Positions 11,326 to 63,694 are shown, counted from the stretch's first letter. The stretch: 64,000 nucleotides of DNA from Botryllus schlosseri (GCA_051294905.1 CM119371.1:4590001-4654000); one strand, 5' to 3'. Notes: generated by a model from the sequence alone, not told the origin. Made by a program: numbers and translations.

Positions 11326-11435
11326 CATGTTGGCTATCGACCCATCTCAATGACCTACCACCAAGCAAGTTGTGTCAACCCACATTTGGCAAGGCTACTC
11401 ACCTCGACAACTACCGACCACCTGCTTGCCTATCA
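11326..11435 (+). pseudogene. PLK1: PLK1-like exon E6 copy (kinase C-terminus), truncated
   Basis: cacag|MLAIDPSQ*PTTKQVVSTHIWQGYSPRQLPTTCLPI vs PLK1 MLQTDPTARPT...GYIPARLPITCL. Confidence 0.8.
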
Positions 11436-12523
11436 TAGGGTTACCATATTTTTGTGGAGCAAATTCCGGACACTCTATAGCGCCCACTAGTGGATTTTAA
11501 AATAAGGTATAACATATTGTCTGTCAATCTGACGTCACACTAGCAAAGCATTGCCCATCGACTGTATTCAGGAATGGAGTGGGATATAGAGCACTGGTGA
11601 TTGCTACTTGCTAGGGCCTGCAATAGATTCCTCCACGGGCCGGATGAAATCATCTGGCGGGCCGTGTCTGGCCTGTCAGGATTGTGTTTGACAGCCCTGC
11701 TATACTCTTAGGTCGGTGCGGCTATCTGTTTATGTGTTTTAATCAGGTCCGAAACAGCATTTTTTCTGTCCCCTTCCGCCTAAAAAAGCACTGATCTTTG
11801 GCCTACCGTCGATGTGACTTGTGGGGTACTTACTAAGATGCATTTGGCTGTTAAATTTTATGTATGAATTATGTCAATAATATCGAATTTTCTATAGATT
11901 AGGCTACTATAAAACGCACCAGCAGGTTTCACATCCGGTGATTTCCAACCTTTCATGGTCGCGACCTCATTTCTCACTTAAAAATGTTCCGTGGCAAATC
12001 TCAAAACTTCATAAGCTGATTACTAAAAAAATTCAGCTTGCCCAAACTTTTACTCACGGCATAGGAAACTGATTACGTCCAACATCATCGCGATCCCCAG
12101 ATAAAGGCGGACGACGCCAAGATTTGAAACCACTGTATGTGACTGAAGCATCCAATCGGCCTTAACCAACTCAAGGAATATACCGTTAGCTTATAATTGT
12201 GATTGCAATCTTTCTTATTCAGTAAATGATGGTTATTTATATTTATTTTGATTGCATTTTTTTGGGCAAGGGTGGTGCCTGGTGCCCATACTAAAATCAT
12301 TATACGTTGCATTAACTCGAGCGCGTGCGAAGAACAATTTTGAATATAGCATAAATCTGCTTGAAAATAATATCGTTTATGTTGATTTACGAAAAACTTT
12401 TGGTCCTGCTTCAAGCCTTCAAAATTCCGGACATCTAGGCATATTTTAGAAATTCCTCCCGGACGCCGATTTTTCAGTGAAATTCCGGACATGTCCGGGG
12501 AATTCCGGACGTATGGCAACCCT
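11436..12523. mobile_element. hAT-type element with TAGGGTT(A/G)CCATA termini, composite interior
   Basis: Left TAGGGTTACCATA, right TATGGCAACCCTA, TCCGGAC subterminal repeats; TSD not recognisable. Confidence 0.55.
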
Positions 12524-12537
12524 ACATTACTCCCGCT

Positions 12538-13844
12538 TTGACCCCTCAGTCAACGTGTCCGCCACCTTGTGCCATTGGAGAAAGGTTTGCTGCCGATGTC
12601 CTGAAGCGTGAAAAACAATGCATTCTCGTGGTGCGCGAAACAGTGTCTTCATTTACCAAATCTATTATCATTACAGACGAAAGAGCGGAGACTCTACGTA
12701 GCGCACTCGTAATCCTGTGTCTAGACCTGCGTCCACTGAACAGCCCGAACTCGGTCATCAGGACGGACGGAGCTACATCGTTTTCAGCGCTGAAGAACGA
12801 CTCGCTCCTCACTACCTACGGCATGGCTGTGGAAACGGGAAGGGTCATGAACGTTAATAAAAATCCCGTCGCCGAAAGAGCAGTTCAAGAACTCTCCAGC
12901 GAGATACTGAAGCTTCAGGGATCCGGCTATCATGGAGGCCAAGTGACTCATCTACAAATTCAAATCGCCACTTGTAACCTCAACAACCGTATCCGCGGAA
13001 ATGGCGTCTCGGCAAGGGAGATCCTGCTTCAGAGAGATCATGTTCACCAACTCCTCTCTCCCAATCGATGATGAAGAGCTGATAAAGAAACAACAAGGAA
13101 CGTAGGACCGCTAATCATCCGGCAAGTGAAGTTGCGAAGGCCCCGAAACGAGAAACGAGGAAATCGGTTCCAGTCGGCGTTGGCGATATCGTTTACCTAT
13201 ACAACGATAAGAAAAAGCACCGAAGCAGGGATCGATATTTGGTGTTGTCAACCGAAGGCGAGTGGTGTAACATATCTCGGTTTGGAGGCAAACGACTGTC
13301 GTATGGGACTTATCGCGTGCGTCAAAATGACTGTTGCTTGGTACCAAACGAAATTGGACCAATAGATCGAACTTTGAATTACTCTGATTCAGATTGCGAA
13401 TCTATCGAGCATGAGCCCGAGATTCTCGACAATGCGTCGATCTCCGACGAAGGGCCCTTGGAAGCATCGACTCCCGACGAACGGCAATATCCCGCAGATC
13501 CTGTCTCCGAACCAGACTCGCAACAACGTCTACCTGACCTCGCATCGGAGAGTCCACCAATACGACCTCGTCGGTCTCTGAGAGTCAGAAAACCGTCTGT
13601 CTGGCAGAAAGATTATGTCATAGACAAATGAAGGAGAAAACGTTGCGCCAATATTGTTTTGTGTTGTGTTTGAACGGAGCCGAATGTTGGCTCCTGTTAA
13701 TTGATTGTTCGCTGATTGCGACTGATTGGTGTCATCGCATAATTACTTTATATAACGGTTGCTCGCGGTGTTGGGTTCTCATCTTTTGCTGCAATAAACT
13801 TCTGTCGTAAGCCGACATCGTTCTTGGTGCCTATAGGGAATACA
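12538..13844 (+). mobile_element. Gypsy-like LTR retrotransposon 3' fragment (integrase, PPT, 3' LTR)
   Basis: Integrase D,D,E: FAADV, IRTDGATSF, NPVAERAVQEL; frameshift/stops after ~13040; purine tract GAAGGAGAAAA at 13630-13640; then a ~200-bp LTR-like segment with TATATAA and AATAAA ending TACA. Confidence 0.8.
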
Positions 13845-13879
13845 GGCTCTATAAGGAAAGGACGTAGTTTATTTTTGTC

Positions 13880-13997
13880 CTGGAAGCCATGGATACCAGT
13901 GTTACTAATCAGGTCTTTGGTCTGACCCGGCCGGGAGTCGAACCCACGACCTACCGATCAAGAAGCCGGACGCTTAACCATTACGCTATCTTGGCGG
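13880..13997 (-). mobile_element. tRNA-derived SINE head (family B)
   Basis: Minus strand has A-box TAGCGTAATGG and B-box GGTTCGACTCCC followed by CGGGTCAGACCAAAGAC. Confidence 0.7.
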
Positions 13998-14339
13998 AGA
14001 AGTTCGCCATGTTAGTGAAGGTTGAAAACCACTGATCTAATATCAGTTTGGCGATTTATTAAATCTATTATTCCACATCTTGCATGGTTATTAACATTAT
14101 CTTCGGTGTGGTCGCCGAGATAAAAAAAAAACTGCCGTCTGTTTGTTGTGACGGTGTGATTCGTTTACGGCTCATTGACCGCAATGTAGATGGGGGATTC
14201 CCCTCTGTGTGAGTGGATATTTGATTGCTCACTGCTCAGCAAAAGTATAGATTACAATACGCTATAGCAAAAGTATAATACAGATTACTGTTATTATGAA
14301 GAAAAAGCTTTATACTTTATGACATGCCATATTAAGAAC

Positions 14340-15350
14340 CAACGTACTTCCTTTATTCACATATGTCTCCCAGACGTCAAAAATGCCGGGAACATCAGAA
14401 GCAGGATAAAAGTCGAAATCACGAAATTCCTCTTCGGTATAGATCCCAAGATTGATTACACCAAAATCACCCTGCCCAAAGAGCAGGGAGGACTCGGGAC
14501 CATCGACATCATTACAATGGCTGACTTGGCGTATACAAAGCCGGCGGTCGAGTACTTGAAAAGGGCGAACAAACAACCGGAAAGCAACTTGGACAGAAGG
14601 CTCGAACACCAACTGGCAATCATTTTAACAAGGTACCGAAACCATGATATCAATAACGCCATACCACATACATCACAGCCGCTCAGTCACTGGAACGATA
14701 CCAAGGAACGACTGGAAAGCATGAAGTTCGCAAAGGACGACTCGAAACAAAAGCAAGAACAACGCTACAAACTCACACTGTCAAGAACATGCAACAGAGA
14801 GATTGGCGAAATGATCGGACCGAGCTGGGAAAATATCAACCACACATGCATCACTTACCATCAGAGGCAGTTCAACTGGGAAGTAGCGCACAGACTCCTC
14901 CGAACCAACGAAGGCTTAAAAACCCAGTGGGCAACAAAAACAAGAGACTGCGCCTTGTGCGAAACCGAGATAGAGATGCATGAGCCTATATTTGTGACAT
15001 GTAAGTCCACTAAAAATCTCCCAATATCACTTTAGATTCGTGGCAAGAGGTGACGCAAAGAAGACTGCCAAAAAGTGACTTCCAAGCAATACTCGGCATG
15101 AACATCGCAACCGCAATGACAATTGAGCAAAAAAAATACGCTAACAATATTGATCACTGTTTACAAACTGGCAGTCTGGCGAGCAAGGGACATAAATAAA
15201 TACGAGAAGCGACCGATTGACGCGGAATGGATAATAACATCACTACAACAAAGGCTCCGTATGCGACATAGAACAAACCCAGGTGATCTCACGGAAAGAA
15301 CGCTTACAAGGATACAAGATGAAATATCGAATGCATCAAGATCGATGTGA
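14340..15350 (+). mobile_element. 5'-truncated L1/Tx1-clade LINE, 3' part of ORF2
   Basis: LPKEQGGLG motif, HRLLRTN, C-terminal zinc knuckle CALC..EMHEPIFVTC, KLAVWRAR; stop at 15033-15035 and later frameshift. Confidence 0.8.
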
Positions 15351-15886
15351 GTCGTAGATGGTTTTTGCCTTACAGCACTGACTGGGAAGACTCACAATAA
15401 ACCTCCAAATGTCAAGCTATATACTTAATGACATAATCTTTTACCAGTGTCACAGACTAATATCATTTATCCCACGCGACTTCGTATTTCTCAATTTGCG
15501 AATTATCACAAAATTATCTCTCTACTAGAGTATACATCGAGAAGGCAGGATGTCACCGTCACCGCTTATGATAAGTTCCGCTATTATAATTCAATCAGTT
15601 TTACCTGAGGACCTCAAGTTGAGGTTCTGTAACGCAGACTTCTACAAATTACCGACCTGGTCAGCTGATGGTCAATTAAGTGCTAGTTCCAGTTCTAGCT
15701 GTCTAGTCTTCTAGTCCAGTCTTTGAACTACAGTACAAGTATGAATCAAGTTTGTTATGTATATTTTTTAGACAATAAAACAATTTTAGCCAGTAAAATT
15801 TAACCATGAAGTAAGTTATTTTTGAACAACCCTATTAGACCATATCAGTTTCAGTATCTGTTAATGCACGATATTTCATTTTGCAG

Positions 15887-16093
15887 GCTGAGTTGTGCTA
15901 GATTTCACAATAATGTAAGATAAAGTTTACCATCGCTACCGGTACTAAAAAGATCCCGAAAGTCGTGTGTGACGACTGTACTGGAAAACGATACACAAGA
16001 GGTACATTTCTTGGCAAAGAGGGATTTGCGAAATGCTTTGAAATCACGGAAGTCGTAACAAAAGAAGTGTTCGCTTGTATAATTGTGCCAAAG
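15887..16093 (+). pseudogene. PLK1: PLK1-like exon E1 copy 1 (Gly-rich loop)
   Basis: ttttgcag|...[47 protein letters not shown]|gtgagt vs PLK1 [19 protein letters not shown]...KEVFAGKIVPK; catalytic Lys changed to Ile. Confidence 0.9.
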
Positions 16094-16608
16094 GTGAGTC
16101 AAGTGCAGACGCAAGGAATCTATGTGCCCAATATATGTTGTATGCATCAATGCCTTCTTTTGTTAACTGTGTTGAAACCATGGATTTGATCGGAAGCTTA
16201 CATGTTGTCATTCACAAAGCCAGTCTAACACAACCAAACAAACCATCTCTTGAGCACTCTTGTGCCTGTCATGTCGTCAGATTCTACAATTCAGCTTCTA
16301 TTCCTACTTCAACACACAGTCCCCCTAGGGCCATGTATGCAACTGCTCATGTAGAATTACATTTTGATTAGTTTCAATGGTAACTCTCTTCATCTCAAGT
16401 CTAAGTTCAAGTGTAATAGTGTTCAAGTGGCTAAATAATTTTGTTGTTTCTGTCTCTTTTCCCAACAGGAACTACTCACTTATCAAAACTCGCAACTGCA
16501 ACTAGAACCACTCACTTTATGAAATGTGCAACTAAAACTATTCAAAATAACAGTAGTCAGTCAACCGTCAACTCATTAGATTAAAATTCGTTCAAGTCTA
16601 AATTTCAG

Positions 16609-16749
16609 GCACTTCACAAGAATAAGCACGAGGAAGAGAGAGAGATCGGTCGCCATAGCAGTTTGAATCACAAGCACGACATTGGATTTCAAGGATTTTT
16701 CCAAGAACAGGATTTCGTCTACATTGTTCTCGAGTTGTGCAAAAGACAG
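16609..16749 (+). pseudogene. PLK1: PLK1-like exon E2 copy
   Basis: tttcag|ALHKNKHEEEREIGRHSSLNHKHDIGFQGFFQEQDFVYIVLELCKRQ|gcaagc. Confidence 0.9.
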
Positions 16750-17754
16750 GCAAGCGTATTTCCTCATTACAACTGTAATGTATATCTAACTGTAGTGATC
16801 GCAATTACATCAGATTTGTAGCGTTTATTAGCTAGCCCACTTGGACAACTAGATAATACCAGTTGTCTAATTAGACTAATCATAACCAAATGCCGTTAAT
16901 CTAATAATATTCTAATTTGAGAAATACTTTTATGCTGTCATTTCAATTCTAGTATAATTTATGGTGTACCTGTACCTGTACAGGAAAACTGTATAGTGTG
17001 AAACTAGCCTACTTCGGTGTACAGACGCAAGTCATTCTGTTGTTCATGAGAATGGACTCTTATTTGGTATGAAGTGATTTTGATCTTTACCGCATTGTTT
17101 TACGAATTAAGTGATTCTGATCTAATTTCGATAACTTGTGTAGCTATAATTTTAATTCTAATCTAGTTTGAAAATTTTCTTTAATAGCCCGACTCTGATC
17201 ACTAGAACTGGCACAAATATTCGAGTACGGTACTCAAATCTGAATCTGTATTGATTCTAATAATTCGAGTCATGAGAGATGGTTTTTTAGAATACTGTGC
17301 TTGTACGCTCCTGGCCACAAGAGGAAAAGATGATTAACAATAAACTGAACTGAACGAAGAGTAAATTTACCAATTAAATAATTACACTTTCAATAGTATT
17401 TCTCATCGTGGATATCTGTAAACCTCAATTGGTCGTGTCACAGCATACTAAACATGTGTAGTAAGGTACTCGCGTGAGTGGAAATGACATAGGCTTATCT
17501 GTGAAATCGTTAGGCTACCGTATCAACCAGCAACATTGCACAAAGTACAAAAAGATGGTGTTATCGTATATTCTTTGTGATTGCATGAAATGTGCATATT
17601 TGAACTTCACACAGCATTCATGCATATTTATATGTCGTCATAGTGACTATCATCGAATACTTGATTCGGAATTGAACACTCAGGCAGACCTAGTCGACTT
17701 TGCCCAAACCTAGTCAGCAAATTACGAATCACATATTTTGAAAGCTCATTCTTT

Positions 17755-17840
17755 CACAGTCTACGTTTCTCAGAACCTTCCAAAAACCGGATCAACAATA
17801 TCGCTCAGAATTTTGGAAAGTAAACTACAGAGTTTCAACA
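17755..17840 (+). pseudogene. PLK1: PLK1-like exon E6 3' remnant
   Basis: FTVYVSQNLPKTGSTISLRILESKLQSFN|gtaagt aligns to the E6 copies at 28668 and 31143; downstream intron is homologous. Confidence 0.65.
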
Positions 17841-18421
17841 GTAAGTTTTCTGTAGGTCTTGGCAAATGGAGTTCCTGATTGATTTGATTCTGAATCGAGT
17901 GTTACGTTTCGAATCTCGTACTCGAGTCTCATTCATCATAATTAGAGCCTGACCGATATCGTATTTTCGAGCCAATACCGATAAGTGGCACCTTCACCGA
18001 TAGCCACGATATATGCAGCCAATATTGAAACAATATGGCAACTAGTTTAAGACATATTTCCAAACCTTCAGAGCATTTATTTGAACAACTTTGCGGACGT
18101 TGCTATTCCTGGATATGAAATGAACGCGAAAGGATGCATCTCACTCAACGCATCCAAGCAGAGTCACTCAGTAGCAATAGTAGCCTACCTCTACTTTTAC
18201 AGAATATTCAAGAAGGTTTTGACCCGCATTTTCACCATTATTAGTAGTGCTTACTCTGAGACGGCTGGAAGAACAGCACACAACGAAAAACCGGTATCAT
18301 GATTCACGACAAACTAAGACCCGTGTTTTCTAGTTGATCGGCAACTAAAATATTTGTACATACACAACTAGAACAACGCACTTTTTAAAATCTGCAACTA
18401 AAGCCAGTATATGAATTTCAG

Positions 18422-18570
18422 GCATTGCTTCTGAAGTAGCATGAGAAAGACAAATGTGTGAAGAGATCAGTCTCCAACGAAGTTTGAATCACAAGCACAT
18501 CGTTGGAGTTCACGGATTCTTCCAAGACTGGGATTTTGTCGACGTCTTTCTCAAGTAGTGCAAAAGAATG
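18422..18570 (+). pseudogene. PLK1: PLK1-like exon E2 copy
   Basis: ALLLK*HEKDK../[36 protein letters not shown]|gt; stops and a frameshift. Confidence 0.9.
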
Positions 18571-19629
18571 GTAAAAGCATTTTTTCGTTACAATGTAATA
18601 TACCTCTAGCTGTGCCAATCGAAAATGCATTAGATCTGTCATGTTCATTACTAGCAGTCTTATGCAACCATGAAATTATTGTTCTATATCGTACTAGGCT
18701 AAATAAGGCGAAGTACTTGTAATGTAATTCTAATCTAATTAATCAACTAATTCTACACATATAGTGTGAAACGAGTCAGATTGGTGAACAGTTCTCATGC
18801 TTATGATAATCAACTCCGATTATGAAGGGAAATTGATTTCTTTTCCCAACTAGGTAATTGTAATTCTAATCTAATTTGGAAAAATGTGTTTATTATATTT
18901 CAAATTCTAATCTAGTTTGGATAATGGATTTGACATTTTTCTGGTTGCACCATTGTGATTTCTAGGGCTGAGCACAATGATTTGAGGACTCAAATCTGAA
19001 TCGAGTATCAATTCTGATAATTTGAGTCGAGTAGTCGGAAATGATTGTTTCGAGTGCCGATAATATACGCTCCATGCCACGAAAGGGAAAAATTATATTA
19101 ACAATAAGCTGAACTAAACCAATAGGAATTATATTTTGGATCATATTTCTCACTGTGAAAAGCTGTAAACCTTGATTGGTCGTATAGCAGCATACAAAAC
19201 ATATGGTACAAAGCTACTCGCGTACGTTGGAATGGCATTCCCGAGTAGTCGTGATCAACCTAAAGCATTGTCACAAAGTGTGATGGAATAGGTATGGTCA
19301 TAAAAGTGCCAAATAATCTTTATAATGTGACTAGAATCGGCATTATATTCTTTGTGGTGTTGCTTACACGAGTGACTGAAACTCATTACTCGATTCAGAA
19401 TCAAATCAGTCACACGCTCTGTTTTAGCCAGCCTGATTTATTACATGTTCGATTTCAAAGAGCAAATATTAAATAAGGTTTATAGTTTGGAAGGTTCATC
19501 GGTCTGCAAAAACAAATTTGACGGTCCCTCAAACTCGGAAAGGTTGAGAACCACTGATTTAGGTGTGTCCAACAAATTATACTTTTTTCTCATTCCAGCA
19601 AACCAATTACCATTGATTTTTGTTGTCAG

Positions 19630-19755
19630 TCGCTGATGGAAGTTTTCAAAAGAAAACGTTCCATCACAGAACCAGAGACCCGTTATCGCACGCAACGGAT
19701 TCTGCTTGGAGTTGTTTATCGTCACAATTGTAAAATCATTCACAGAGATATCAAG
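19630..19755 (+). pseudogene. PLK1: PLK1-like exon E3 copy (HRD exon)
   Basis: cag|[42 protein letters not shown]|gtaac, 126 nt. Confidence 0.9.
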
Positions 19756-20422
19756 GTAACATTGTAAGCAGTAGTGCATTTGTAAATAATCTTCGAAAAT
19801 TATGTCATGAACCAGAGCCGACCGATCATTGGTTTGTCAATTTGTGGATAAAACTATGCACATTATGTACCACTAAGGTAAAATGATTGATGGCGCTACA
19901 AGCTCTTGAAAGCGGACTTGGAGCAACTACTGGATTTTCAACATGCGCAACAAGAATTAGACCTGCTCACTTTTCCAAATTCCCTACATAACCAACGAAC
20001 ATTGAAAATCCGCTACTAACAAAGTTATACGCAACTCACTAATGGCTGTTTGGTTACTAAATTACAAATGCGCTGAGAAATATCGAAGATAGAATTGCTA
20101 TCTCAAATTGACGGGGTTTCGAGTTTGAAATGGGATTGGTTTCGACCCTCAATCCTCAGCCCTGCCTATACCACTGTTTAGCGTGATCACTCTGAGCCTG
20201 GGTTGTAATGACTCAAGTCATGACTTGACTCGATTCAAACTCAAGTCGCGATTATTTTATGACTCGGCTTGTCTCGTGTCATTTCTTCAAATGAGTAAAA
20301 TGACTGGACTCTAGTCATGTGACTCGAGACTAGGACTGTCACTGTAGCTTCGAAGAATAGTAAGTCAACACATGATTGGTATTTCGTATATCAGTCCTGG
20401 TGCTTGAAAATAGGGCCAGTAC

Positions 20423-23400
20423 AGTGGCGTAGACAGGGGGGGATAATCGGTGTCCGATACCCCCCGTTTCCAAGCTCGAAATACCCCCCGTCTTACGTAT
20501 ATTTCCATTGATCTAATATTTCTTGTTCTAATTCGATAATCCCCTAATAGACACTTACGTGACCTTTGACACGAACCAATCAGGTTGCAGCAGGATGTAA
20601 ACAAAGAACAAGGCCGGGCAAGCTTACTATGAGCTCTTATGGAAAAAGGTTGAAAAATGAAGGTTTTAAGCAAAATTACGTTGAATTGGGGATGACTGGC
20701 CTTAATGAATACTAATAGCGTAGAGCTAGTATGTAGTTGCAGCTTTCAGTCTAGGATGAACATGAATGGTGGCAAGTACGCATCAGCGTGCTGTGTCCAA
20801 ATGCATGGATTTTTGACAACTTTTCGGATTAAGCGACGATTGTTGTATACTATACTATAGGATTGTGGTAATGCATATGTTGACGATTTCATAGGCTCCA
20901 GGTCTGGAGCAAAATTTTCAAGCATATCTCATGTTCAGAAATATATGCTATAAAATACAGCTTCTGCCACACATCACAATTTTAGTGTATTGATTATGAA
21001 ACTTGAAAGCTATGGAGATTCTATCGAATTTCTGGATTTGAGTGGAACAGCATCTTCTAACACCGCGGAGAAAGCTACGAAGTATTTCATGGAGCGCTAT
21101 GCACACGACTTAGGGACAAAGATTGAGGAGACAAGTCACTCTTTGTTGAAGGGTTATTCTAGTGAACAGCCAATGTTATCGCAACTTGCGGAAAAGAGAG
21201 ATATCACACTCAATGGAAATACACATTCTCATAAAATCCATTATTGATTCGTCTTGCACTTGTAAGACAGGGTAAGTAAGGAAAAAGACATTTTGTCAGA
21301 GACTCCTGCAATAGATATTGTAACCATGATTTATTTTCACATTAGGTTCTGATATATGCTCTCATGCATATGCATTGATTAAGACAATCCAGCACCTAAA
21401 GCTACAAGGACTGCATTGTGATTTGCATCGGCATCAGTGAGCTCGATCGTGATTGACAAACCATCTCTCGACCGTACTCGCAACCGATCAACTCCTGCCT
21501 CAAGGTAGATTTTGGTGCGTATCTGGTGTCTTCAGTTTTATAACATTCCACCAAACACAAATAATCCTGGAACATTTTCACCTGGAGAATTGTTCATTCA
21601 ACAAATTGGGCATCTAAATGAGCTTCAATGCGCACCACTGGATTATAGTATGAATAGACATGCACTGTTGGTACACATAGACCATGGCACCGCACAATTA
21701 CGATCCATAGCATGCTATTAGGCATTACGATATTCACAATGGAACTGAATTTTCACAATTGCTGAATATGTTGTATCATTCATTTTTAATTTTCAATCTT
21801 GAATTAGAGTAAGCAATTAGTCCATATTTGGTTAGTTGATACACAATGCTGCATAGTACGACACCAGACAAAATTTTATACTTGTTGATTCTTCCGATCA
21901 GCTGTTCAATATGAATACGCTGTCCCACCATCTTTCTTGTTGTGGAACAGTCTGGCTCAGGCATACAAATCATGTGCAGGAATATTTAAATCTAGATTCA
22001 ATTTCTTGATTTCAGACTCAATGGTGAATCCTTTTTCTGCCATGATAGCATTTCCTGGTTCACCATAGCTGAACTCCATCATTTTCTCACATTTCTTGTC
22101 GAACCCACATATTTCACTAATATTTCGATCTGAAATGGTCCCTGTGAACAGTTCCTACACAAAAGTAAGTGCACAACAATCCATCAATCCTTTCAAAGTT
22201 GTATGTAATCTATTGACAGTCAGTAATCATTCTAGTTTTGAGAAATCATGAATGAATGCAAATGGTGCATTTTTAAGAACCACATATCTACATGGCCAAA
22301 TCGAAATTTAATGAAGCAGTTACATACGGTTTAATACTATGCTTACAGCAATACTATAAATTTGATGTCAGTAGGATAAGTCGGACAATTCAGAAATAAT
22401 TTATTGTAGTCTAGCATGAAATTTCAGCTTCTCCGCATCTTTTGACATTATGATGCTCCTCTGAGAACTGAACTTCACTAGCAATAATTGTCCGTCAATT
22501 TGTAATTTTCCTGGACTAGTTTCCTGTTTTGTGCTTCTACTTCTTCCAGAAATTTGATTTTCTTGCGTTTTATCCATCAACTTCCTCTTTCTGCAGCTTC
22601 ATTAAAGATATCCATCAAGCCTGCACAAAATATATAATATGTTTATTTTACAGAGCAACACTGCTGTGCAGGCACCTATCAAGGCGTACTCGTCAGACTC
22701 ATGCAACGTATCACCGCTACCAATTTCAACTATTCATCTCATTATTGAATATATTGCTCTCAACAATTTCAACCCACACCATCATGCAGCAAAACTGTGG
22801 AATAAAACGAGACACACACCAAGTCGATTGTGGCGTCAAGTGTGACTGCATTTCAGATTAGACTCATTCTGAAATACAGAATTATTTCATCTTAATTATG
22901 TCACGATTCAATATTTTTGGTACAATAATAGATATGTCATTTTATTAATAAAATGAGAATTCAGATGACTACAAGGAAGTCCACATGCCTTTATCCAGAT
23001 TTTACATTCTTCCATGCATGTTATTGGCTCTGGGAAAGGTACAAGCGCACACCAGGAACGGTCTGAGTAGTCATCTCCAAGTTACACAGGCTATTAGCAC
23101 AGTGTTTATCCGGCATTTGTCCTGATTGATTCAATACACGAGCTAGAACAAAAAAATGACAATTTCAGCTGGGAACGGATCATATTGCCTATCATATTAA
23201 TATGATCATTAAATATGCAGACAAGTGTCCAGTGTAACAGTAATTTTCTATATAATGATGCAGACTGTAGACTGTACTATATACGATTCCATAAATAGAA
23301 CGCAGATAACGCAAAGCCCACATAATGAATACCCCACATATCCTCACTCAAGATTAATCTAATACATGCTATTCGGTACGACAGTCCTATAGTATACGAC

Positions 23401-25046: not shown

Positions 25047-25621
25047 CCAGAAACTGTTAAACTGAGGAAAATAACGATATTATGAGTGCGAGCATTCTAT
25101 ATCACTCGAGGAGAGTTGGAAAAAGTGAATTGAACCAGATTGGAATGATAACTGAACAGTGAACATAATGACTTGGACTCGAGTCAAAACAATGACCCAT
25201 ATTCCACTCTCTACTAGCGGGCTTGCACATGGACTAGACTCGGTGGTGAATTGGAAATACTCGGCTTGACTCGAGTCAAAACTATAAAAGTGAGATTGAC
25301 TTGTGACTCGGAACTTTATGACTTGATCACAACCCTGCTCTGAGCTAGCGAAGGCTGCAAAAAATCATGCAGCTGGACACCGGTATCATGACGACACGTT
25401 TTCTAGTTGTCGGCAACTACATTTTTTAAATGCACAACTTGAAGTAGAAACACTGCTATTCCAGATCTGCAACTGCAACTAGAACAACTTACTTTTATAT
25501 TACGCAACTAAAACCTGAACTCCTCAAAATGGCAGTGTTTTGTGGACCAATAATCAACTAGATTGGAAGGTCGTACAAATCTGTATACTTGTGTAATTGA
25601 ATATGAAATTGGTATTGACAG

Positions 25622-25814
25622 CTTGGAATCTATTCGCTGAACAACATGGAGTTGAGGGATGAAGATTTCGACGAGATTTCATCCTGGCAACCTAAGTAGA
25701 CTTTGTCAGCCAAACAAAAAACTTTTTGCCGCACCCAAACTATATTGCCCCGCAAGTTATCGGAAAGAGTGGACACAGTTTCGATGTGGAGACCTGGCCG
25801 CTGGGCTGTGTTTT
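25622..25814 (+). pseudogene. PLK1: PLK1-like exon E4 copy (DFG/activation loop), frameshifted
   Basis: ..NNMEL..ILAT*VDF..PNYIAPQVIGKSGHSFDVETWPLGCV|gtgagt. Confidence 0.85.
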
Positions 25815-26739: not shown

Positions 26740-26898
26740 GTGTTACCAACACAGAGTCATGGATGCACATATGTGACAAGTAAGCCGTGACCATCATATG
26801 CAGTAACGAATCATCGGACTTTCATGTGGCAAAATTGGAAGCTCAGCTCAAGAAATTGATGCATACCAATCCAACTGTGAAGTCTGCAACAATTCTGG
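26740..26898 (+). pseudogene. PLK1: PLK1-like exon E7 copy (interdomain linker)
   Basis: AG/GT bounded; SDFHVAKLEAQLKKLMHTNPT resembles PLK1 [20 protein letters not shown]; paralog at 46085. Confidence 0.7.
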
Positions 26899-48822: not shown

Positions 48823-49195
48823 CAGGTTGTAATGACTTGAGTCCAAGATGGCCACGACAGCCATTTCATTGTCAATTCGAAGGATAGTCAAGTCACCACA
48901 TGATTGGTATTTCGTCTATCAGTCCTGATACTTGGAAAATAGGGCCAGAAACTGTTAGGACTGAAGACAATTACGATGTTATGAATGCGAGCCATTCTAT
49001 GTCACTCGAGAAGAGATGAAAAAGCGAGTTGAACCGGATTGGACTGAAAACTGATCACAATGACCTTGACCTTGAGTCACAACACTATGACTTGACTCGG
49101 TGATGAATTGAAAATGACTCGACTTGACTCGAATCAAAACTATTGAAGTGAGATTGACTTGTGCCTCGGATACTTGTCGCTTGGTTACAACCCTG
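48823..49195. mobile_element. hAT MITE (same family, opposite orientation)
   Basis: CAGGTTGTAA / TTACAACCCTG, TSD GTTGCTAC / GCTGCTAC; its right end plus flank is tandemly duplicated (about 49140-49297 and 49300-49456). Confidence 0.85.
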
Positions 49196-52100: not shown

Positions 52101-52541
52101 GGAAATATGCCAGTCTTTTGTGCCACCGAAATAAAGAAGGATAATTGGTTTCTTGCAGATTGAGATAACCAAATAGGCTTGTCATTGAATACGGTACCCT
52201 GTAAAACCAAAATATCAGAAACAGAACAACAAAACTAATTCATGTAATTGCTTGAGTGTCAGGAATGCTGAACACTTGCATTTAAAACAGAACTAGCCAA
52301 GAAAGAAACATGTTGACATTGATGCTACTGAAATAATTCCTGGTCGAGTTGATATAGTTGCCGATTGTCAACATTGAAATCTTTTGGGTGAAATCTGGCT
52401 TTAGGGTTGTATCGGAAGACACACTGGGTATACGAGGTTTTAAGATTTTTATGGTAGAACTGTTAAAATATATGGAACTAGTTCTTTACAATAGTATTTT
52501 CTTTTGGCGATTTTTAGCTAGATGTATGTATGTATAATTAT

Positions 52542-53395
52542 TAGGGCGTTTTTTTTTTACCTAAAAAAAAGGGAAATTTTAACCTAAAAAATCAAAATTT
52601 TGACTTTTTTTGACCTAAACAAACTGAATCTTGACCAAATTCTGGCCTAACATATGCAGATTAGGTGTTTTCCCACATAATGTTAAAATTGTACCACTCA
52701 ATCTTTATTTCCGGCTGGAACTGACTGTCCTAACGACGCAGTTTGGCCTGAAAAAAAAACGTTTTTGGCTTAGAAACAGGCAACTTTTTACATGAAAAAA
52801 ACAATATTTTAACGAAATCTGGCCCTATGAAGAATTCCAGTGGTTACAATATGTATTATGGTAGAAATAATTAAAAGATGTTATAGTACAACGAGAGATA
52901 CTTTCCTACATTCTTGGGTAGAAAGTGCATGTCATTACTAAGAAGCTTGCCAAGGACGTTTAACAGCAGCAGTTGTTGGCTGACAACACTCAAGTTGTGC
53001 GTACACTGCTGGTGACACACCGTGTTGCTTTATTCTGACAATGTTGTCTACATCACAATTTTTCATCGTGCTCTTCTTAATGTAAGAATGATGCAATGTC
53101 CAAGAAGTCTTTCTTCAGTTAGGATATTGCGGTATGTTGACCATAACACCATGTCTACCTATTTGTTTTATTTGACCGTTTACGATTCACAATGAGCAGA
53201 CAATTAGCCGTTTACAACGGTAGTCCTATAAAATAGGCTACAAGCTGTAAAATATCAAATGATATGTACACCGACAGTGCAGAATCTACGATACAAACGA
53301 AATGCAGATGTCGAAAAAATTTTGACTTGATGAAAAATTTTGACAAATTTTGACCTAACGCTACAATTTTGACATGTCAAAAAAAAACCGCCCTA
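52542..53395 (-). mobile_element. Non-autonomous hAT element, inverted paralog of 6459-7634 without the SINE
   Basis: TIRs TAGGGCG / CGCCCTA, TSD ATAATTAT / ATAATTAA, colinear similarity along its length. Confidence 0.9.
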
Positions 53396-53599
53396 ATAAT
53401 TAAACATAAATGATTTCAGTAGAAATTCCACCCCCTATTTAAGTGAGGGTCTCGAGACGATTTCATTGGGTCTGTGACAGCTTTTCGACCAAATTGCTAC
53501 TAAGCACGGAAAAGTCAGGCCGCTGGTGAAAGTAAATCAAAAATCGTCAGATTATATTTTCATCTGAACAAGACACACACAGATAGGAGCATGCCGAAC

Positions 53600-54195
53600 G
53601 ACCATAGTTGCAGTTTCTCAAACTGGCATCCACCTTGGCCTAGTGCTCGTCTGCTCGATGTCACAGTTCCTTTCAGTGTTAGTCTCTATTCCGCGGCTCT
53701 TTCTTGCTCATTCCATTGTTTCAGAGCTCTTTCCATTCTTTGGAGCAGATCCTTTAATATTTTGAGGGCTTCCAATTTTCTCTCTTGATGTCTCTAATCC
53801 ATTCGTTCTTTAGAGCATCATTGCTTCCAAGGGAAACTGAACACATACCATAGTAATAATCAGGTGTTCTTAAGCATTCCTTCAGCTACAAACTAATGCA
53901 TAATACAATCATCTGTTCATGTATATCTGTAAATAGAAAATTGTTCAAAGTGTCAAGCTGGCATCAAGCAAAATGTTAGATGAAAAATTGTCTCCCTTAT
54001 AAATGCTAAAATCTCACAGATAAAAAGTAAGTGGATATCGCCGCTTACACTGTATTTCCTCATCCTCGCTATAACTCCTCACAAACTCGATACTGCCTTC
54101 AAACGTTTTGTACAGCCATAAGCTTATAACTTATAAGCACAGCACACCTGACCGACTGATCCCCACCCCCCTCGACATTATCTTCTTGGAATCAC
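53600..54195 (-). pseudogene. Spliced THAP-domain gene or transposase relic
   Basis: Exon 54195-54049 gives QVCCAY[dup]GCTKR then gtaagc; exon from 53836 (after tgttcag) gives FPL/GSNDALKNEWIRDIKRENWKPSKY*RICSK, matching the THAP C2CH consensus. Confidence 0.75.
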
Positions 54196-55627
54196 CTGTA
54201 CATGGATGTGAGAATGCATATGGATGAAAAATTTAAAAGGATCACCCAGTGATCAGTGATATTAGTTCAGAGTTGTGAATCTTACTTCTATAGCTAACTG
54301 CTGTTCTGACATCTGAGTTATATCCTGTTTCTATCGTACTTCTTATTCTATTCCCAGAATTCCCGATGTTATAATCTGTAAGTTATAGGAATAAATGGTT
54401 TAGTATAAACGCAATATCAAAAGATGGACGGCTGATAACTAACAGTACCTGATTATTAGTCCGTTTTATGAAGGTACAATGCGTAAACCCAAAAGCGTCC
54501 AGGTAAAATTTCCGACGACTAGGTAGATAAGGAGACAAAATGGCTACGCTTCAATTGTCTCCGCTGGAGACAACATTGGGAATACGAGATGCGCAGGCGC
54601 ACCGCTTGATATCACCCCAATAAACCTCTCTAAACGGCAATATGTTTTTATGAGTAGGCTATTGGCAATTAAAATGAGTTTGCGCAGTAGGATATTTCAT
54701 CTCAGACGGCCATTATGTCGATGTGAGTCATGCAGTTGTAAGCGAAACTGTCTTGTAATAATCAATCATTTTGCAAGTTTAGAGGCTTAGCGGACCAACT
54801 GAACATGCTTCGCGGACCTACGGTTGAGAACCGCTGAACTAGGTTCTCTGTTCTTTCTACGCAATTAAAGGGTGTGACGGAGGTGTGTCTGTAGCCAGTG
54901 CCGGGCTGCCGGCTGGCAAAATCGATATGCGGCACTTCCGAAAGCGATACGAAAGCGCGCGTGTAGTAGCCTAATAACAGTAGCACAGATACTGTTGCAG
55001 ACAGATTGAATATTATGGGAAATTGTACCAGTCAGGCGCTTCCAGATAACTTAGGGTGGCATGTTTTACTTTACGATAATAATGTCATGTAGCATTCAAG
55101 CTGTCAGGATTCCAGAATTTCATCTATGAAATTTACATGTTGTAACGACTCTTGCCTTACACTGATAGCTAATTCGTTGAGTTCCCCGAGACCTAAGATT
55201 GTGTTGCACGTATGTCTGGAGAAAGAGCAAGCTTATACAAACCACCAATCCAGTTAGTTGACGTTCAACTAGTTACTGTCTTTTTTAGTAGTTCTGGTTG
55301 TCCTGTATGTAATTGGTGTCCTGTTCTCACACAATTCTTTAATTTTTAGTTCTATTTAATCACTGTATCTTGGAGAATCATCGTGACTCACCTAGGCAAA
55401 ACGTACCGAGATTTCAATAGGGCTAGTTGTAGTTGCGCATTTTAAAAAGTGATTAGTTCTAGTTGTGTATTTCTAAGCTAGGTTCACAAAACCCAAGTTC
55501 TTGACAGCATTGAAATAATATAAATGTGCAGTTGTTGTCGGTCAAGTAACATTTCGTGGATCTAGTCTACTTTCTTATCCATAACAACATGACCATCACC
55601 AATCAGAGTCCCCCCATGAACACATCT

Positions 55628-57262: not shown

Positions 57263-60200
57263 CAGTGCTGTTCAACCTGTGTGACGGTTTGCACTTGTGC
57301 GAATAAAAAAAATTGCAGTGCGAATGACGAAGGTGGTGCGAATGAAAATCTGGATCAAGTGCGAATGAAAATTGGGATTAAATGTTCATTTTTCTGACGT
57401 GGAATAATTCAAATGAGCCTAATAGGAAATTTAAGAATAGTGTAACCTTTGTAGTTGCGACGCAATCGTAAAAACTTGATACGACGCACCACTATAATTA
57501 TTACATAACCAAAGCCTGGTTTGGAAGCTGGTGTAGTGACAGTATAGAGATCTCTACAATCTCTATAGTGGCAGACATACAGTATATCAGCCCGTCTGAG
57601 CCTGCGCCAGACTGACAAAAATGACGTCAAATTGACTTTCTGCTTTCTTTCGCTAATCAATCATCATATTTCCGTAATAACTGTTCGATTAGCGCGAGGC
57701 ACGAGGATAGTAGTAAATACCATCATTACAGACTCACATTTGCAAGTTACTGTAACGTAAAATTTTACCCCTTCAAGGGTTATCAAAGTTTGGATCGCAA
57801 ATGGTATAATTTTGGGTCGACACGGTGCCAGAGCTATCTGTTTATATGTATGCAATAATTATTGAATTTATTGCAAAAAATCCTGCGATCGTTTTTACAT
57901 ATCTAAGATCACTGTGTTGCGTACTATAGCCAATAAGCGAGACACGCAATAAATACGGCTTCATCATGAGAATTCATGATAAGATTGTTTCGACTGTTTT
58001 TTTTTCTTCTGGAAAACATGATCGAAGACCGTTGGGATGAACTAGTGTAGGGGTGTGCAACGAGCGAATTCAGGCCTATGAGACACATTCATTTCGAGGC
58101 CAACCCTTTTCTGCGTCGGGACACAAGAAGACGTAAAGTTTTGGCGAACAAACCGCTGGCGAACTTAAAAACCTCGGTTTAAAAATGGCCGATGCTGGAT
58201 GGCCGAACATTTCGAGATGGATTGGATATGCACCGTTGTCGGCACGGAATAGTCCCGTTCCTACATCTGAGTAGACAGTAGTACAACTGCGATACGCAGA
58301 GGAATTTAATTCTCCCTAATTTGAAATCGCGAGCGTCAGACATGTTTTGTAGAGCTGTGATGGTAGAATTGTGGTGTGCGTGTTCTGTACGTCATACATG
58401 TCCGTAAAATCGTAGCATACAACTGTAATATTAAAAATAAATTCTTTTTCATGGGTAAGGCTCGGGTCGCGAAATGCTACAAAAACTCAGATTTTAGTGG
58501 TAGTCTAAAAGCTGCTTTACCTGTATAAAATGTCGTGCATTCTCAAGTTAGATTGAGCTAAAGGGCAGAACACACAGTATCGTGAGTTATTTGATATTCT
58601 CATAAACTTGCGAGACAGAAGTTGGAGCAACGTATCATAAGGTAGCGAGCTCTAATGTGCCTGCACTTTATGTTCCAAAGACATAAGGCAAAAACGTCAA
58701 CACAAACATGTTGGTTTGACATCCTTTCGACAAACTGGAGCCTCGCGGGACCTTTGTGTCAGCTCTCATAAACGATTTCTGCCAGCAAGCATTTTTCACT
58801 CGCGAAAAATACGCTATATTTTTGATAGGACTGCAGAACAGATTTTAAGACCTGGCCATCCAATCACTCAGGCGCGTATCCAGAGTGCGAAAAAGGGGGG
58901 GGGGTTGCGTTACGAAATTGGCTATTGTGACGTCATCATTACGATCACTCGTCTCCACGCCATGACGAATATTTATATATTATAGTTTAATAATAAACAG
59001 AGATTTGCGGTGAGTGGGAGATGTACGAATACGATACGAACATTGCCTGAAAATCGCGTTTCTTTTACGGTATGATTGAAAGAAATTCGTAAAGGCTCAC
59101 ATCTAGTCCGTCTTCAAGCGCCTAGTTCCGGTCAGAGATGCGCGATTTTGTTGGGCTTTGACGATATTATGCGCACGGTCGGTAGTATCGCAGCGGACGA
59201 ACAAGCGCGGAATGGGGCGGTAGCATAAACGAGGGCCATCGCGATCGCCACAGAGAGGTGTGGTGTGAACAGTGTACGTCGTATACGAATGTGTGCTTTT
59301 CGATGGCTTTACAAGCCATACGGCTGAGCGTGTAGTGTGCGCGAAGATAATTAGACCTTCATTGCAAGCACGCAAGTCAGTCAACTAATACAGAGTACAC
59401 ACTGGGATAATAACTTGATCGACAGAGAAACTTGTCAGCCGATATAATTAGGTTAACTTTACTACTAGGCCTACTCAATTCTCCCGTTCAGCGACAACAT
59501 AGGCCTGTATTTGGACGACAGCAGGTCACCTAACAATCGGGAACGTGGATTGCTAGGCTTGTATTTTGAAATGTGAATGTCAATCCTAGGCCATTTCTCG
59601 CCAATAATCGCGAATACAATGTGGATTTCAGAATAGCATTGTCGTACTGGTGCTGTCGTGTCTGCGTCTCGCTGATCAATCAACACGCCGCGTGCAATTC
59701 TAAATTAGGATTTCAAGGCGAGCAGGTGCAGCGAATTCGCGAGCGATGTTGATTGCCGACAACTTCGTCTTTGCAATTACGTATCGCGTCGGCCAATTAG
59801 ATTAGACTTTCCTAAAATGCGTCTCTCGTTTTAGCAAGGCGAGAGAGAAATCGAGGGAAGAAAGTTGAGAACGTCAGCAATTGCCACAGCTGAAATGTAG
59901 CTGAACAAGCGCAGAATTCGTATGGAATTAGCGAATTATAATGACCTATTTTATCCTTTCGACTAATTCGGCGCATAATTCCAATATTTGGTAGGGGTGT
60001 TAGTCCCCTTAAATAACATTAAGACGCCATATTCGCCTTCTCATACGTAAAAACGAATATGTTAAACTAATAAATTAGCAAATATTAGAGGCTATATTGA
60101 CATCAATTTTTAGGATTTAGAAAAGGGGGGGGGGGTTCCGACCCCCTAAAAACCCCCCCCTGGATACGCCACTGCAATCACTAGTAGACATTGTTGTACA

Positions 60201-60604: not shown

Positions 60605-62108
60605 TGTCATAAAGAAAAGCATTCTGTGGATCCAGTATTAACTATTGATCACGACTTGACAGAACGCCAATTCGATATATATTGGAAAGCCTTTAATGGG
60701 AATAGTAACCTCAAGCTTCATTTGGATATGCACGCTGGCATCAGAAATGTTGAATGTGATGTATGTGGTAAACTCACTCCGAAGGATACCATCAAGCGTC
60801 ATATGAATATGCATACTGGCATCAAAAATCATGTTTGTGATATCTGTGGGAAAGCATTCACTCAGAAGGGTACCCTCAAGCATCATATGGATGTACATGC
60901 TGGGATAAAAAATCATATGTGTGAAATATGTGGTAATGCATTCACTCAGAAGGGTACCCTCAAGTTGCATATGGATATTCATACTGGCATCAAAAATCAT
61001 GTTTGTGATATCTGTGGGAAAGCATTCACTGAGAAGGGTACCCTCAAGCATCATATGGATGTACATGCTGGAATCAAAAATCATACATGTGCTATATGTG
61101 GTAAGGCATTTACTCGGAAGGATACCATGAAGCATCATATGGATATGCATACTGGCATCAAAATCATATTTGTGATATATGTGGGAAAGCATTTACTGAG
61201 AAAAGTACCTTCAAGGATCATATGGATATGCATGCTGGCATAAAAAATCATGTTTGTGATATCTGTGGGAAAGCATTCACTAGGAATGGTCACCTCAAGT
61301 GTCATATGGATAGGCATGCTGGAAGCAGAAATCATACATGTGCTATATGTGATAAAGCATTCACTCAGAGGGGTGACCTCAAGCTTCATATGGATATGCA
61401 TGCTGGCATCAAAAAGCATGTTTGTGATATCTGTGGGAAAGCATTCACTAAGAATGGTCACCTCAAGTGTCATATGGATAGGCATGCTGGAAGCAGAAAT
61501 CATACATGTGCTATATGTGATAAAGCATTCACTCAGAGGGGTAACCTCAAGCGTCATATGGATAGGCATGCTGGAAGCAGAAATCATACATGTGCTATAT
61601 GTGGTAAAGCATTCACTCAGAGGGGTGACCTCAAGCTTCATATGGATATACATGCTGGCATCAAAAAGCATGTTTGTGATATCTGTGGGAAAGCATTCAC
61701 CAAGAATGGTCACCTCAAGCGTCATATGGATAGGCATGCTGGAAGCAGAAATCATACATGTGCTATATGTGGTAAAGCATTCACTCAGAGGGGTGACCTC
61801 AAGCTTCATATGGATATACATGCTGGCATCAAAAAGCATGTTTGTGATATCTGTGGGAAAGCATTCACCAAGAATGGTCACCTCAAGCGTCATATGGATA
61901 GGCATGCTGGAAGCAGAAATCATACATGTGCTATATGTGGTAAAGCATTCACTCAGACGGGTACCCTCAAGCTTCATATGGATAGGCATGCTGGGAGCAA
62001 AAATCATGCATGTGCTATATGAGATATAGCATTCACTCGGAAGGGTACCCTCGAGCAAAATATGGCTATGCATGCTGGCACCAAGATTCATATTGTCATA
62101 TACCGTAA
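60605..62108 (+). pseudogene. Tandem C2H2 zinc-finger exon, paralog of 8018-9274 (~14 canonical fingers); frameshifted, so either a pseudogene or an assembly indel
   Basis: Same acceptor CTTTTCTCTAG and N-terminal leader; A5 to A4 change at 61160-61163 splits ORFs 60626-61243 and 61222-62022; TGA at 62020-62022 in the last finger. Confidence 0.85.
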
Positions 62109-62839
62109 TTTCTCATGTATGATACGCCCCGCGAGACTTGCGACACGGTAATCCTTGTTAATACTGGCAAAAAAAAATCATAAATGTCAAGCTTTCTGAA
62201 ACCGCCAACATCAAGCACGTGGATTGAAGTGTTGAGTTCTAAAGTCACGCAAGGTCATGATCAAGTAATTCGAGTCGTGCATGATGCATCCACCTTAGAA
62301 TTGTTTCGCTGCTAGCAGTGTCAAGTGATTGCCCTTGAGAGCGGACGTATCACTACATTTCTCAAGCTATCATACTGTATGAGCCAACATATTTTTCATG
62401 TACACTTTATGATAGTCATGCAACATATTGCATTAATACTGGGTAATATGAAAGAGACAAGTATTGTTGTACATTTTTTGAGTATTGATGTACATTTGTT
62501 GACAAGCGTTCTACATTTCTCCAATATCCTTGTGATCGGTTTTCGTTTGTGTGATGATCTTGCAGCCATTGCTAGCTAGTAATTGCTTAGTTAGTCCTGA
62601 ATAGTGGTAGTTCTGTCTGTCTGATTCTTCAGTCATTTTGTACCGATGTTCATGTAGAAAGCAAATCTGATTCCTATAAAATATAACGATTGGTCTGCTT
62701 CGGAATCAAATCTGGTAGTTGTGTTTCGTTTGTTACTGATTTTCAAATGTCGTTAGTGATTTAGTTGTGCAGTTTAAACATTCAGTAGTTTGTATAAGTC
62801 TGGTGCCAGCTTGTTTATGTACGATATTTCATTTTGCAG

Positions 62840-63028
62840 ATTGATTAAATCGATTATATCCGAAAAAGTATACCTTGCAACGAAAGAGATCTCTGAATTC
62901 ATGTGTGATGACTCTACTTGGAACCATACAGGAGAGATCCATTTCTTGGCAAAGGCGGATTTGCCAAATGCATTATACTTATTGAAGTCAGAACAAAACA
63001 AGCTTTCGCTTGTTAAAATATGCCAACG
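62840..63028 (+). pseudogene. PLK1: PLK1-like exon E1 copy 2
   Basis: ttttgcag|..TKEISEFMCDDST/PYRRDPFLGKGGFAKCIILIEVRTKQAFAC*NMPT|gtgagt. Confidence 0.9.
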
Positions 63029-63560
63029 GTGAGTCGTCTTTGTTGACACTATAGAATCTGTGTTACTGATTCTATTTGTCACATTCACTAATGCCATTTT
63101 GTAAAGACTCTAGTGAAAACAAATGTGGCCAAGAACTTGCAAGTTGCCATTTCTACATGCTTTTTATAACTAGAGCTGAGTTGATTTTGGGATTTTGAGG
63201 CGATAACGATGAAACTGAAACCAAACACCTTCGCCGATAACCTCGATGTTTATTTAGATTAGGCCACATTTTCACAAATATAACAGCTTCACAGTCATTG
63301 CTATGCCTAGAACGGACATGAAATAAACTAGAAAGGCTGCATCTGGACACCTGTAAGATATAAGAAGTCTATTAATATTTCCAGTGTAGCAGTCGCACAG
63401 TATTTTGTGACCACGGTATGGCCACGCTGAAATTATATATATATTTGCTTCTCATGGACGATACCAGTCTATCTTCCAAAGTGTGATATCGATACGGTGT
63501 TGTTAGCAAACCTGATGGGCCTGGCAGTAGATGCGAGCATTAATTTAGCGTTCATTTTAG

Positions 63561-63694
63561 GCACTTCTTGTGAATAAGCATCATAAAGACGAAATGTGTC
63601 AAGAGACCAGTCTCCATCGCGGTTTGTTTGATTTTATGGATTTTTCAAACTCAAGAATTTCTTCCATATTGCTCTGTAGTTGTGCAAAAGAAGC
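63561..63694 (+). pseudogene. PLK1: PLK1-like exon E2 copy
   Basis: ttag|ALLVNKHHKDEMCQETSLHRGL../GFFKLKNFFHIAL*LCKRS|gtaaag. Confidence 0.85.

Follow-up and report, generated by a model that had tools for sequence, protein, structure and literature searches.

Is the dense, single-strand array of PLK1 exon copies found in the Botryllus schlosseri genome a working locus, a product of genetic conflict or a relic of duplication? The array lies in a 64,000-nucleotide stretch of DNA, hereafter the window, which corresponds to C1:4590001-4654000 in a 495.5-Mb assembly (C1 being contig CM119371.1). A sequence-only reading of the window had described an old, local and scrambled amplification of PLK1 exons and had linked it to genetic conflict. 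The analysis reported here makes it likely that the array consists of decayed non-processed PLK1 pseudogenes, amplified neutrally by tandem and then by segmental duplication.

PLK1 identity of the exon fragments

The window was searched by tblastn with P0002, a PLK1-type protein of 570 aa with Pfam Pkinase and POLO_box domains that had been obtained by searching with one window open reading frame (ORF). This gave 34 high-scoring segment pairs (HSPs) at an expectation value (E) <1, 24 of them at E<1e-3, and all 34 were on the + strand; the reversed protein gave one HSP and three shuffled versions 1, 0 and 0. Merging of the HSPs led to 26 exon fragments, which span 11318-63691 and follow one another as E6; E1 E2 E6; E2 E3 E4 E7; E3 E6; E3 E6; E2 E3 E4 E6; E3 E4 E5 E6 E7 E8 E9 last; E1 E2. 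E1 is thus present twice, E2 four times, E3 five times, E4 three times, E6 six times, E7 twice, and E5, E8, E9 and the last exon once each. Three fragments are weak by protein score alone, namely E6 at 17738 (E=0.34), E5 at 43896 (E=0.26) and E8 at 47058 (E=0.1).

Searches against solved structures placed zebrafish and human PLK1 at the top for an E3 exon (E 1e-11), ahead of PLK2 (1e-7), PLK3 (2e-6) and PLK4 (9e-4), and for the post-kinase exon 'GYI.QKLPTTCLTMAPRF' PLK1 chains made up all 12 of the matches listed. Pfam Pkinase was matched on the E2 and E3 ORFs of the window, and both kinase-domain and polo-box exons are represented, with fragments aligning to P0002 aa 360-568, the portion with PF00659. 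The sequence-only reading had counted about 26 co-oriented copies of PLK1 exons; the 26 fragments, the common strand of all HSPs and the 0-1 HSPs of the controls agree with that count, its exon order and per-exon numbers match the merged HSPs exactly, and the ranking of PLK1 above PLK2, PLK3 and PLK4 confirms the identity that it had proposed.

DNA-level copying and decay

Each fragment is a single exon, with 0.3-10 kb to the next fragment, and copy-to-copy DNA alignments within the window reach 150-690 bp, running into introns. Over the aligned columns, exons are 76.4% identical (2287/2992) and flanks 70.1% (2740/3909). The exon copies share 70-87.5% DNA identity with the exons of an intact PLK1 gene of the same contig (gene B, described below), several of these alignments also entering introns, and copies with a clean alignment to gene B preserve the AG/GT dinucleotides (large-gap alignments not counted). 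The co-aligning intron flanks and the kept AG/GT sites support a duplication at the DNA level, as had been proposed. A retrocopy or processed pseudogene is ruled out by the presence of introns and the non-contiguous exons.

Most fragments contain stops or frameshifts, and none of the units has all 11 exons. Only four E3 copies are free of both defects in the alignment to gene B (19630-19755, 30232-30357, 32918-33040 and 42605-42760). The DFG motif is altered in all three E4 copies (to DFI, DLG and DFD), and QTD replaces HRD in one E3 copy. No complete ORF with intact catalytic motifs occurs in the window, while gene B, 1.7 Mb away, is intact. The earlier statement that every block is broken, through missing exons, stops, frameshifts or lost catalytic residues, was therefore correct.

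Collinear units with recurrent junctions

The array had been called scrambled. The exon copies do stand in the order listed, but each block keeps the 5' to 3' exon order, and "scrambled" misdescribes what is an array of 7-8 head-to-tail, collinear PLK1 gene units with internal or terminal deletions.

Two composite units recur outside the window. The E6/E2-E3 unit (window 17746-19900) has at least 25 contiguous copies of ~2 kb with 76-84% identity, and 71 of its 80 matches among those listed (self included) are on C1:4.07-6.50 Mb, the other nine being on C17, C94 and C183. The E3/E6 unit (window 27396-29966), which is without E4 and E5, gave 111 matches including itself, 108 on C1 and three on C93; its junction recurs at at least 15 other places on C1, and several of these copies continue into the E3 of a next unit. 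Taken together, the composite units show at least 15-25 recurrences at 72-90% identity and are nearly confined to one region of C1. Since both junctions recur elsewhere on C1, they arose once and were then multiplied, rather than being formed by independent scrambling. The exon lengths of gene B place the end of E3 in phase 0, whereas E6 requires phase 2, and the end of E6 in phase 1, whereas E2 requires phase 0; splicing of the composite units therefore cannot yield a PLK1-like reading frame.

A 2.5-Mb field around two PLK1 genes

The 52-kb array belongs to a much larger field of ~2.5 Mb (C1:4.03-6.51 Mb), in which both intact PLK1 genes are located. Gene A, a near-intact PLK1, occupies the minus strand at C1:5790878-5807146. 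Gene B, at C1:6285475-6298501 on the plus strand, has 11 coding exons, all with GT-AG borders, and an open 567-aa frame, with 478 of 570 positions identical to P0002. Identity between genes A and B, with introns counted, is 75-96%, and a third, partial 3' copy is located at C1:6306598-6308493. The sequence-only reading had pointed to the whole genome for the intact parent, and the search indeed recovered these two genes on the same contig. At sites that distinguish gene B from P0002, the copies in the window agree with gene B in 62 cases, with P0002 in 17 and with neither in 63; this preference for gene B over P0002 indicates that the copies descend from the PLK1 lineage of this genome.

For a genome census, aa 1-152 (N-terminal) and aa 255-570 (C-terminal) of P0002 were searched against the assembly that contains the window. 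C1:4,029,825-6,510,910 holds 121 of the 150 N-terminal and 97 of the 127 C-terminal matches, or 218 in sum, in agreement with the claim of a local amplification, since this is the interval with both intact genes. Outside the intact and partial genes there are 197 decayed fragments (60 of E2, 50 of E3, 44 of E6, 16 of E9, nine of E7, seven of E11, five of E1, four of E8 and two of E10), the field counts being lower bounds, as the census found 10 window fragments where tblastn had found 22 (E4 and E5 excluded). The fragments form 20 runs of uniform strand, each of 2-196 kb, the largest of the + runs (4.495-4.677 Mb) being the one that contains the window. PLK1-like pieces off C1 are few and were seen on C8, C12, C16, C17, C5, C13, C15 and some short contigs.

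Copies of the 3' part of PLK1 (E8-E10) on other chromosomes show ~82% identity to gene B, introns included. One of them, on C8 (L011, G000:C8:20709627-20712842), has E8-E10 without stops. Four others with stops present (L014-L017; C16 at 22.46/22.49 Mb and C12 at 20.42/20.46 Mb) form inverted pairs 25-41 kb apart and are 99.3% identical between C12 and C16 and 99.96% within C16.

Layered ages of the copies

Copies inside the window are 65-84% alike. Paralogues of the block 41000-50400 occur along C1 at 91% identity (4.84 Mb), 80-91% (5.20-5.21 Mb), 83-88% (5.50 Mb) and 75-85% (5.72-5.74 Mb). A collinear copy of segment 7300-19900, inverted and ~0.66 Mb distant, is present at C1:5262866-5275432 (- strand) with 95-100% identity, reaching 100% over 7300-8200 and 95% over 15500-19900, and a further 96% copy is found at C1:5558665-5559536. 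The inverted copy could be a recent segmental duplication or an uncollapsed haplotype, the latter option being kept because contigs from another run differ from the window by 1-5%. The amplification had been described as old, which is true of the decayed fragments of the window (65-84% alike) but not of the process, as copies at 91%, 95% and 100% show that copying has not long stopped.

An exact match of 56 nt to the gene B coding sequence (CDS) is located at 28744-28799, within an E6 copy whose remaining sequence has diverged by about 25-40%. Judged from the sequence, this tract may stem from gene conversion.

Transcription

Reads of three bulk RNA runs (X5, X7 and X9; same species label, tissue unspecified) were aligned to window 31000-50999, with about 1.1-1.9 Gb read per run, or 6-13% of each. 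Bins over PLK1 fragments (e.g., 42339-43005, 45007-46340 and 49676-50999) had a depth of 0-0.9 in the three runs, and bins with a dispersed transposon a depth of 1-4. Between 83% and 99% of the aligned reads run into unlike sequence, so that many of them come from paralogues. No splice joint linking PLK1 fragments was present among the 15 joints listed of 73. Within this limited sample, the fragments are silent.

Spliced RNA was seen on the + strand at 36095-36221, 39315-39502 and 40396-~41000, with GT..AG junctions 36221^39315 and 39502^40396 and a depth of 100-190 in X9. The joined stretches (36095-~41000) gave no open frame, and a 26-nt read consensus for the upstream exon had no match in the window at up to three mismatches; the reads may come from an expressed paralogue elsewhere. 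A reverse-transcriptase ORF (36949-38424, Pfam RVT_1), preceded by a 372-bp self-complementary stretch (36577-36948, 89.6%), lies in the intron skipped by these reads (36221^39315).

Origin of the array and alternative explanations

The explanation that we favour, and hold to be likely, is that of a decayed non-processed PLK1 pseudogene array that was amplified neutrally, in tandem at first and by segmental duplication later. A PLK1 copy in a local cluster would have suffered deletions giving derivative units such as E3/E6 and E6/E2-E3, and tandem multiplication of these dead units would have come first, with unequal crossing-over or replication slippage between repeats as the probable mechanism. 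Larger blocks would later have been copied in both orientations by segmental duplication, until recently, and young transposons would then have inserted between the fragments. What the data show directly is the identity, structure, distribution and decay of the copies and their lack of bulk-RNA coverage; the recombination mechanism and the neutrality are what we infer. Most likely the array does nothing, because there is no in-frame splicing, the fragments evolve nearly as fast as introns and no transcription was observed in the sampled RNA.

Several points weigh against this explanation. A passive duplication hub would not usually be so strongly skewed to one gene across 2.5 Mb, and the genome-wide census covered the exons other than E4 and E5. 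The window and the gene B CDS share 60 exact 24-mers, with exact tracts up to 56 nt, and small-RNA cross-talk with PLK1 would be compatible with these matches. Pooled Nei-Gojobori estimates of nonsynonymous (dN) and synonymous (dS) divergence gave dN 0.26 and dS 0.74 for copies against gene B (ratio 0.35; 1154 codons) and dN 0.38 and dS 0.65 for copy against copy (ratio 0.59; 1362 codon pairs), ratios that are biased downward because the fragments were detected and aligned via protein similarity and stop codons were skipped. Exons are also about 6 points more alike than flanks, and some of the divergence may have accrued under constraint; the dN/dS values and the small exon-flank gap would nevertheless fit mostly neutral decay, with some early constraint possible. 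The RNA evidence is thin, being restricted to bulk libraries, to the runs and fractions given above and to an interval of the array rather than of a PLK1 parent gene.

The link to conflict, meiotic drive or small RNAs made in the sequence-only reading finds no support in copies that are 65-84% alike, of which none is intact, and in three bulk RNA runs with a depth of ~0. Stated as a present or former germline small-RNA cluster, or as a drive or suppressor array acting on PLK1 dosage in the way of Su(Ste) on Stellate, it appears improbable. That co-orientation is strict over stretches of tens to hundreds of kb, with 20 runs of uniform strand, would speak for such a locus, but co-orientation is the default outcome of tandem duplication anyway, and all 34 HSPs are in sense orientation with no transcription in the bulk runs. 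Exact matches to the gene B CDS of up to 56 nt and a duplication that is still ongoing, with copies at 91-100%, would also suit it, as would a source gene that is a meiotic and mitotic regulator and whose duplication is tied to sexual conflict in Drosophila in one study (PMC11708218). However, the window copies are not homogenised, near-identical copies (at least 97%) with intact ORFs were not found, no unit is intact, and only one copy elsewhere, the inverted one, reaches 95-100%. A bolder form, in which the field would be the remnant or active core of a germline conflict over chromosome segregation, with gonad small-RNA precursors tuning or silencing PLK1 paralogues or with copy number biasing transmission, would explain the hundreds-fold and still ongoing amplification of one cell-division kinase; we give it slightly less credence again.

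Capture by a Helitron-like or Pack-type transposon that picked up exon-intron pieces of PLK1 and spread them is very improbable. It would account for fragments with introns, for deletion-derivative units in many copies, for the repeats that adjoin several exon copies and for the few copies off C1 (on C17, C5, C13 and C15). Yet the copies are nearly confined to 2.5 Mb, with C1 holding 108 of 111 E3/E6 matches and 71 of the 80 listed for E6/E2-E3 (the rest on C17, C93, C94 and C183), and only one host gene is represented, none of 41 other ORFs having a credible Pfam match. The real transposons of the window, which fill gaps between PLK1 fragments, have 87-100% identical copies on most or nearly all chromosomes, and this genome-wide spread, against the field-bound PLK1 units, argues against transposition as the spreading mechanism. 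More doubtful still is an assembly artefact, in which uncollapsed haplotypes or mis-joins inflate the copy number: a haplotig could account for the inverted copy of 95-100% identity at C1:5.263-5.275 Mb, with allelic divergence in the 1-5% range, but the window fragments differ from each other by 16-35%, beyond any haplotype or assembly error, and contigs from an independent run cover 30 of 30 bins of 31000-50999, including the PLK1-only stretches 45381-45688 and 50154-50585. Least credible of all is that the copies still code, as fast-evolving PLK1 paralogues or alternative exons of a live gene. Four E3 copies have neither stop nor frameshift and keep AG/GT, and dN/dS is below 1; every unit, however, is without some exons and has stops or frameshifts, DFG is changed in all three E4 copies, the unit junctions are out of phase, RNA depth is ~0 and the listed joints do not connect fragments.

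A Dscam-like cluster of alternative exons is ruled out by the stops, the phase clashes and the lack of joining reads. A centromere-like satellite is unlikely, the copies being 65-90% alike and not homogenised.

Relation to known systems

The neutral pseudogene array favoured here resembles ordinary non-processed pseudogenes of segmental-duplication regions in its exon-intron structure, nearby parent, disabling mutations, layered ages and both orientations. It differs from them in the unusual dominance of one gene, in the few composite units that make most copies and in its megabase extent. Ampliconic arrays associated with conflict, such as Stellate/Su(Ste) and the neo-Y gene amplifications of Drosophila miranda, are sex-linked and expressed in the germline, and their near-identical copies are largely intact or produce small RNAs. 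With these the field shares many co-oriented copies of one cellular gene in a duplication-prone region, whereas its copies are 65-90% alike, all broken and silent in the sampled RNA.

No description of a PLK1 pseudogene field on the megabase scale came up in a full-text literature search (supplementary files outside it), and the only precedents that it returned were partial PLK1 copies in Daphnia and polo duplicates in Drosophila. For Daphnia pulex, three intact copies of PLK1 have been described, two of which share a scaffold at a distance of ~1 Mb, together with six partial PLK1-like sequences (PMC2680839; Schurko et al. 2009). These partial copies were judged there to be pseudogenes or remnants of partial duplications on account of stops, rearrangements, truncation and lack of expression (PMC2680839). 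The two cases concern the same gene and have partial, decayed copies beside intact ones, but here at least 197 decayed fragments, as against six partial copies, extend over 2.5 Mb and derive from amplified deletion-derivative units, and the present case appears to be independent of that in Daphnia. Of the polo duplicates of Drosophila pseudoobscura, one is reported to be testis-biased and one probably a pseudogene, and they have been considered in the light of sexual conflict (PMC11708218). The 'tinkering loci' of Drosophila, as presented in a preprint (Weisman, bioRxiv 10.64898/2026.08.09.743762), collect and re-transcribe fragments of many unrelated genes, with ectopic recombination at transposons proposed. 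The field is, like these loci, dense in duplicated gene fragments; unlike them, it contains fragments of one gene next to its parents, with no transcription seen in the sampled RNA.

The field is a large new case of non-processed pseudogene arrays in duplication-rich regions. It offers a clear example of a dead, internally deleted gene unit multiplied to a megabase repeat field around living parents, a second and much larger instance of the phenomenon of partial PLK1 copies reported in Daphnia, and a natural record of how a segmental-duplication hub grows, with tandem copying first and block duplication in two orientations later. It also calls for caution in PLK1 annotation and copy-number calls in this genome. 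Its scale and clean unit structure are striking, and no function is indicated. Its importance would be far greater if the array made germline small RNAs or were sex-linked; nothing here shows either.

Layout of the units and other window content

The fragments are arranged as follows (window coordinates, strand, description).

Lone remnant
11318-11428, +, E6 remnant aligned to P0002 aa 255-291 (E 2.9e-6, 46% identity, one in-frame stop)
Unit 1
15947-16108, +, E1, P0002 aa 11-64
16606-16752, +, E2, P0002 aa 59-110, with a 3-codon gap
17738-17830, +, weak E6 remnant at the end of the unit, P0002 aa 273-303 (E 0.34)
Unit 2 (18419-26876; E5 and E6 missing)
18419-18567, +, E2 with a 1-bp deletion and two stops
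19606-19758, +, E3, exon intact
25675-25815, +, E4 with a stop and DFG changed to DFI
26796-26876, +, E7
Unit 3
27677-27786, +, E3 with a 2-bp deletion, joined to E6, with E4 and E5 deleted
28671-28835, +, E6 holding the 56-nt exact match to the gene B CDS
Unit 4 (30238-31311)
30238-30360, +, E3, exon intact
31135-31311, +, E6 with one stop, 89% DNA identity to gene B
Unit 5 (31771-42306)
31771-31905, +, E2, broken
32921-33043, +, E3 with a 3-bp deletion and without stop
41058-41306, +, E4 with stops and DFG changed to DLG
42062-42306, +, E6 with a frameshift
Unit 6 (42638-50225)
42638-42763, +, E3 with HRD changed to QTD
43142-43327, +, E4 with two stops and DFG changed to DFD
43896-43937, +, E5, weak
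44311-44480, +, E6 with a frameshift
46140-46256, +, E7
47058-47151, +, E8, weak
48387-48521, +, E9 with an 8-codon gap
50076-50225, +, last exon
Unit 7 (runs on past the window end)
62859-63020, +, E1 with a frameshift
63561-63691, +, E2 with a 16-bp deletion

The lone E6 at 11318 shows DNA homology with the E6 copies at 42-44 kb. In unit 1, E1 and E2 share 79-80% DNA identity with the gene B exons, and the position that we take to be that of the conserved kinase lysine is occupied by isoleucine ('ACIIVPK' vs 'AGKIVPK'). The weak E6 at 17738 is backed by its downstream flank (17826-18141), which is 79.9% identical to the E6 flank at 28819-29136. The gap between E3 and E4 of unit 2 is widened by nested young transposons at 20422-25046. 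Unit 4 is a tandem copy of unit 3 (~75% identical), unit 5 is split at 33-41 kb by inserted sequence that includes the reverse-transcriptase ORF, and unit 6, the fullest, is missing E1, E2 and E10. A 63-bp tandem repeat (3.8 copies, 91% match) is present at 44031-44271, between E5 and E6 of unit 6.

Apart from PLK1, the only domains identified in the window by Pfam were of zinc-finger and retroelement type. Pfam searches of 41 further window ORFs gave no credible other host gene, 40 of the 41 being without a match and one, with a repeat-derived frame, matching YlmH_1st and SYMPK_PTA1_N below the threshold; Rfam gave no match in the window at the gathering threshold. The nested transposons of 20422-25046 consist of a 3.17-kb element with ~300-bp inverted ends (20546-23713) inside a ~1.46-kb element, with copies of 92-100% identity on most chromosomes. 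Dispersed repeats at 51416-54596 (~3.2 kb) and 58869-60175 (~1.3 kb) have copies that are 92-97% identical on many chromosomes, and a young repeat at 7300-7640 is 96-98% identical genome-wide. A high-copy element of ~450 bp at 47917-48369, with an inverted partial copy at 48832-49196, is 87-94% identical on many chromosomes and is also found inside intron 5 of gene B. The retroelement remnants at 12481-15035 contain an ORF of 196 aa that shows weak DDE-type similarity and another of 255 aa that carries zf-RVT (the zinc-binding tail of reverse transcriptases). Finally, two C2H2 zinc-finger arrays of 84-bp tandem units, both on the + strand, bracket the PLK1 array at 8018-9274 (14 units) and 60605-62112 (about 17 units); the two share ~79% identity, which extends into ~200 bp of upstream sequence.

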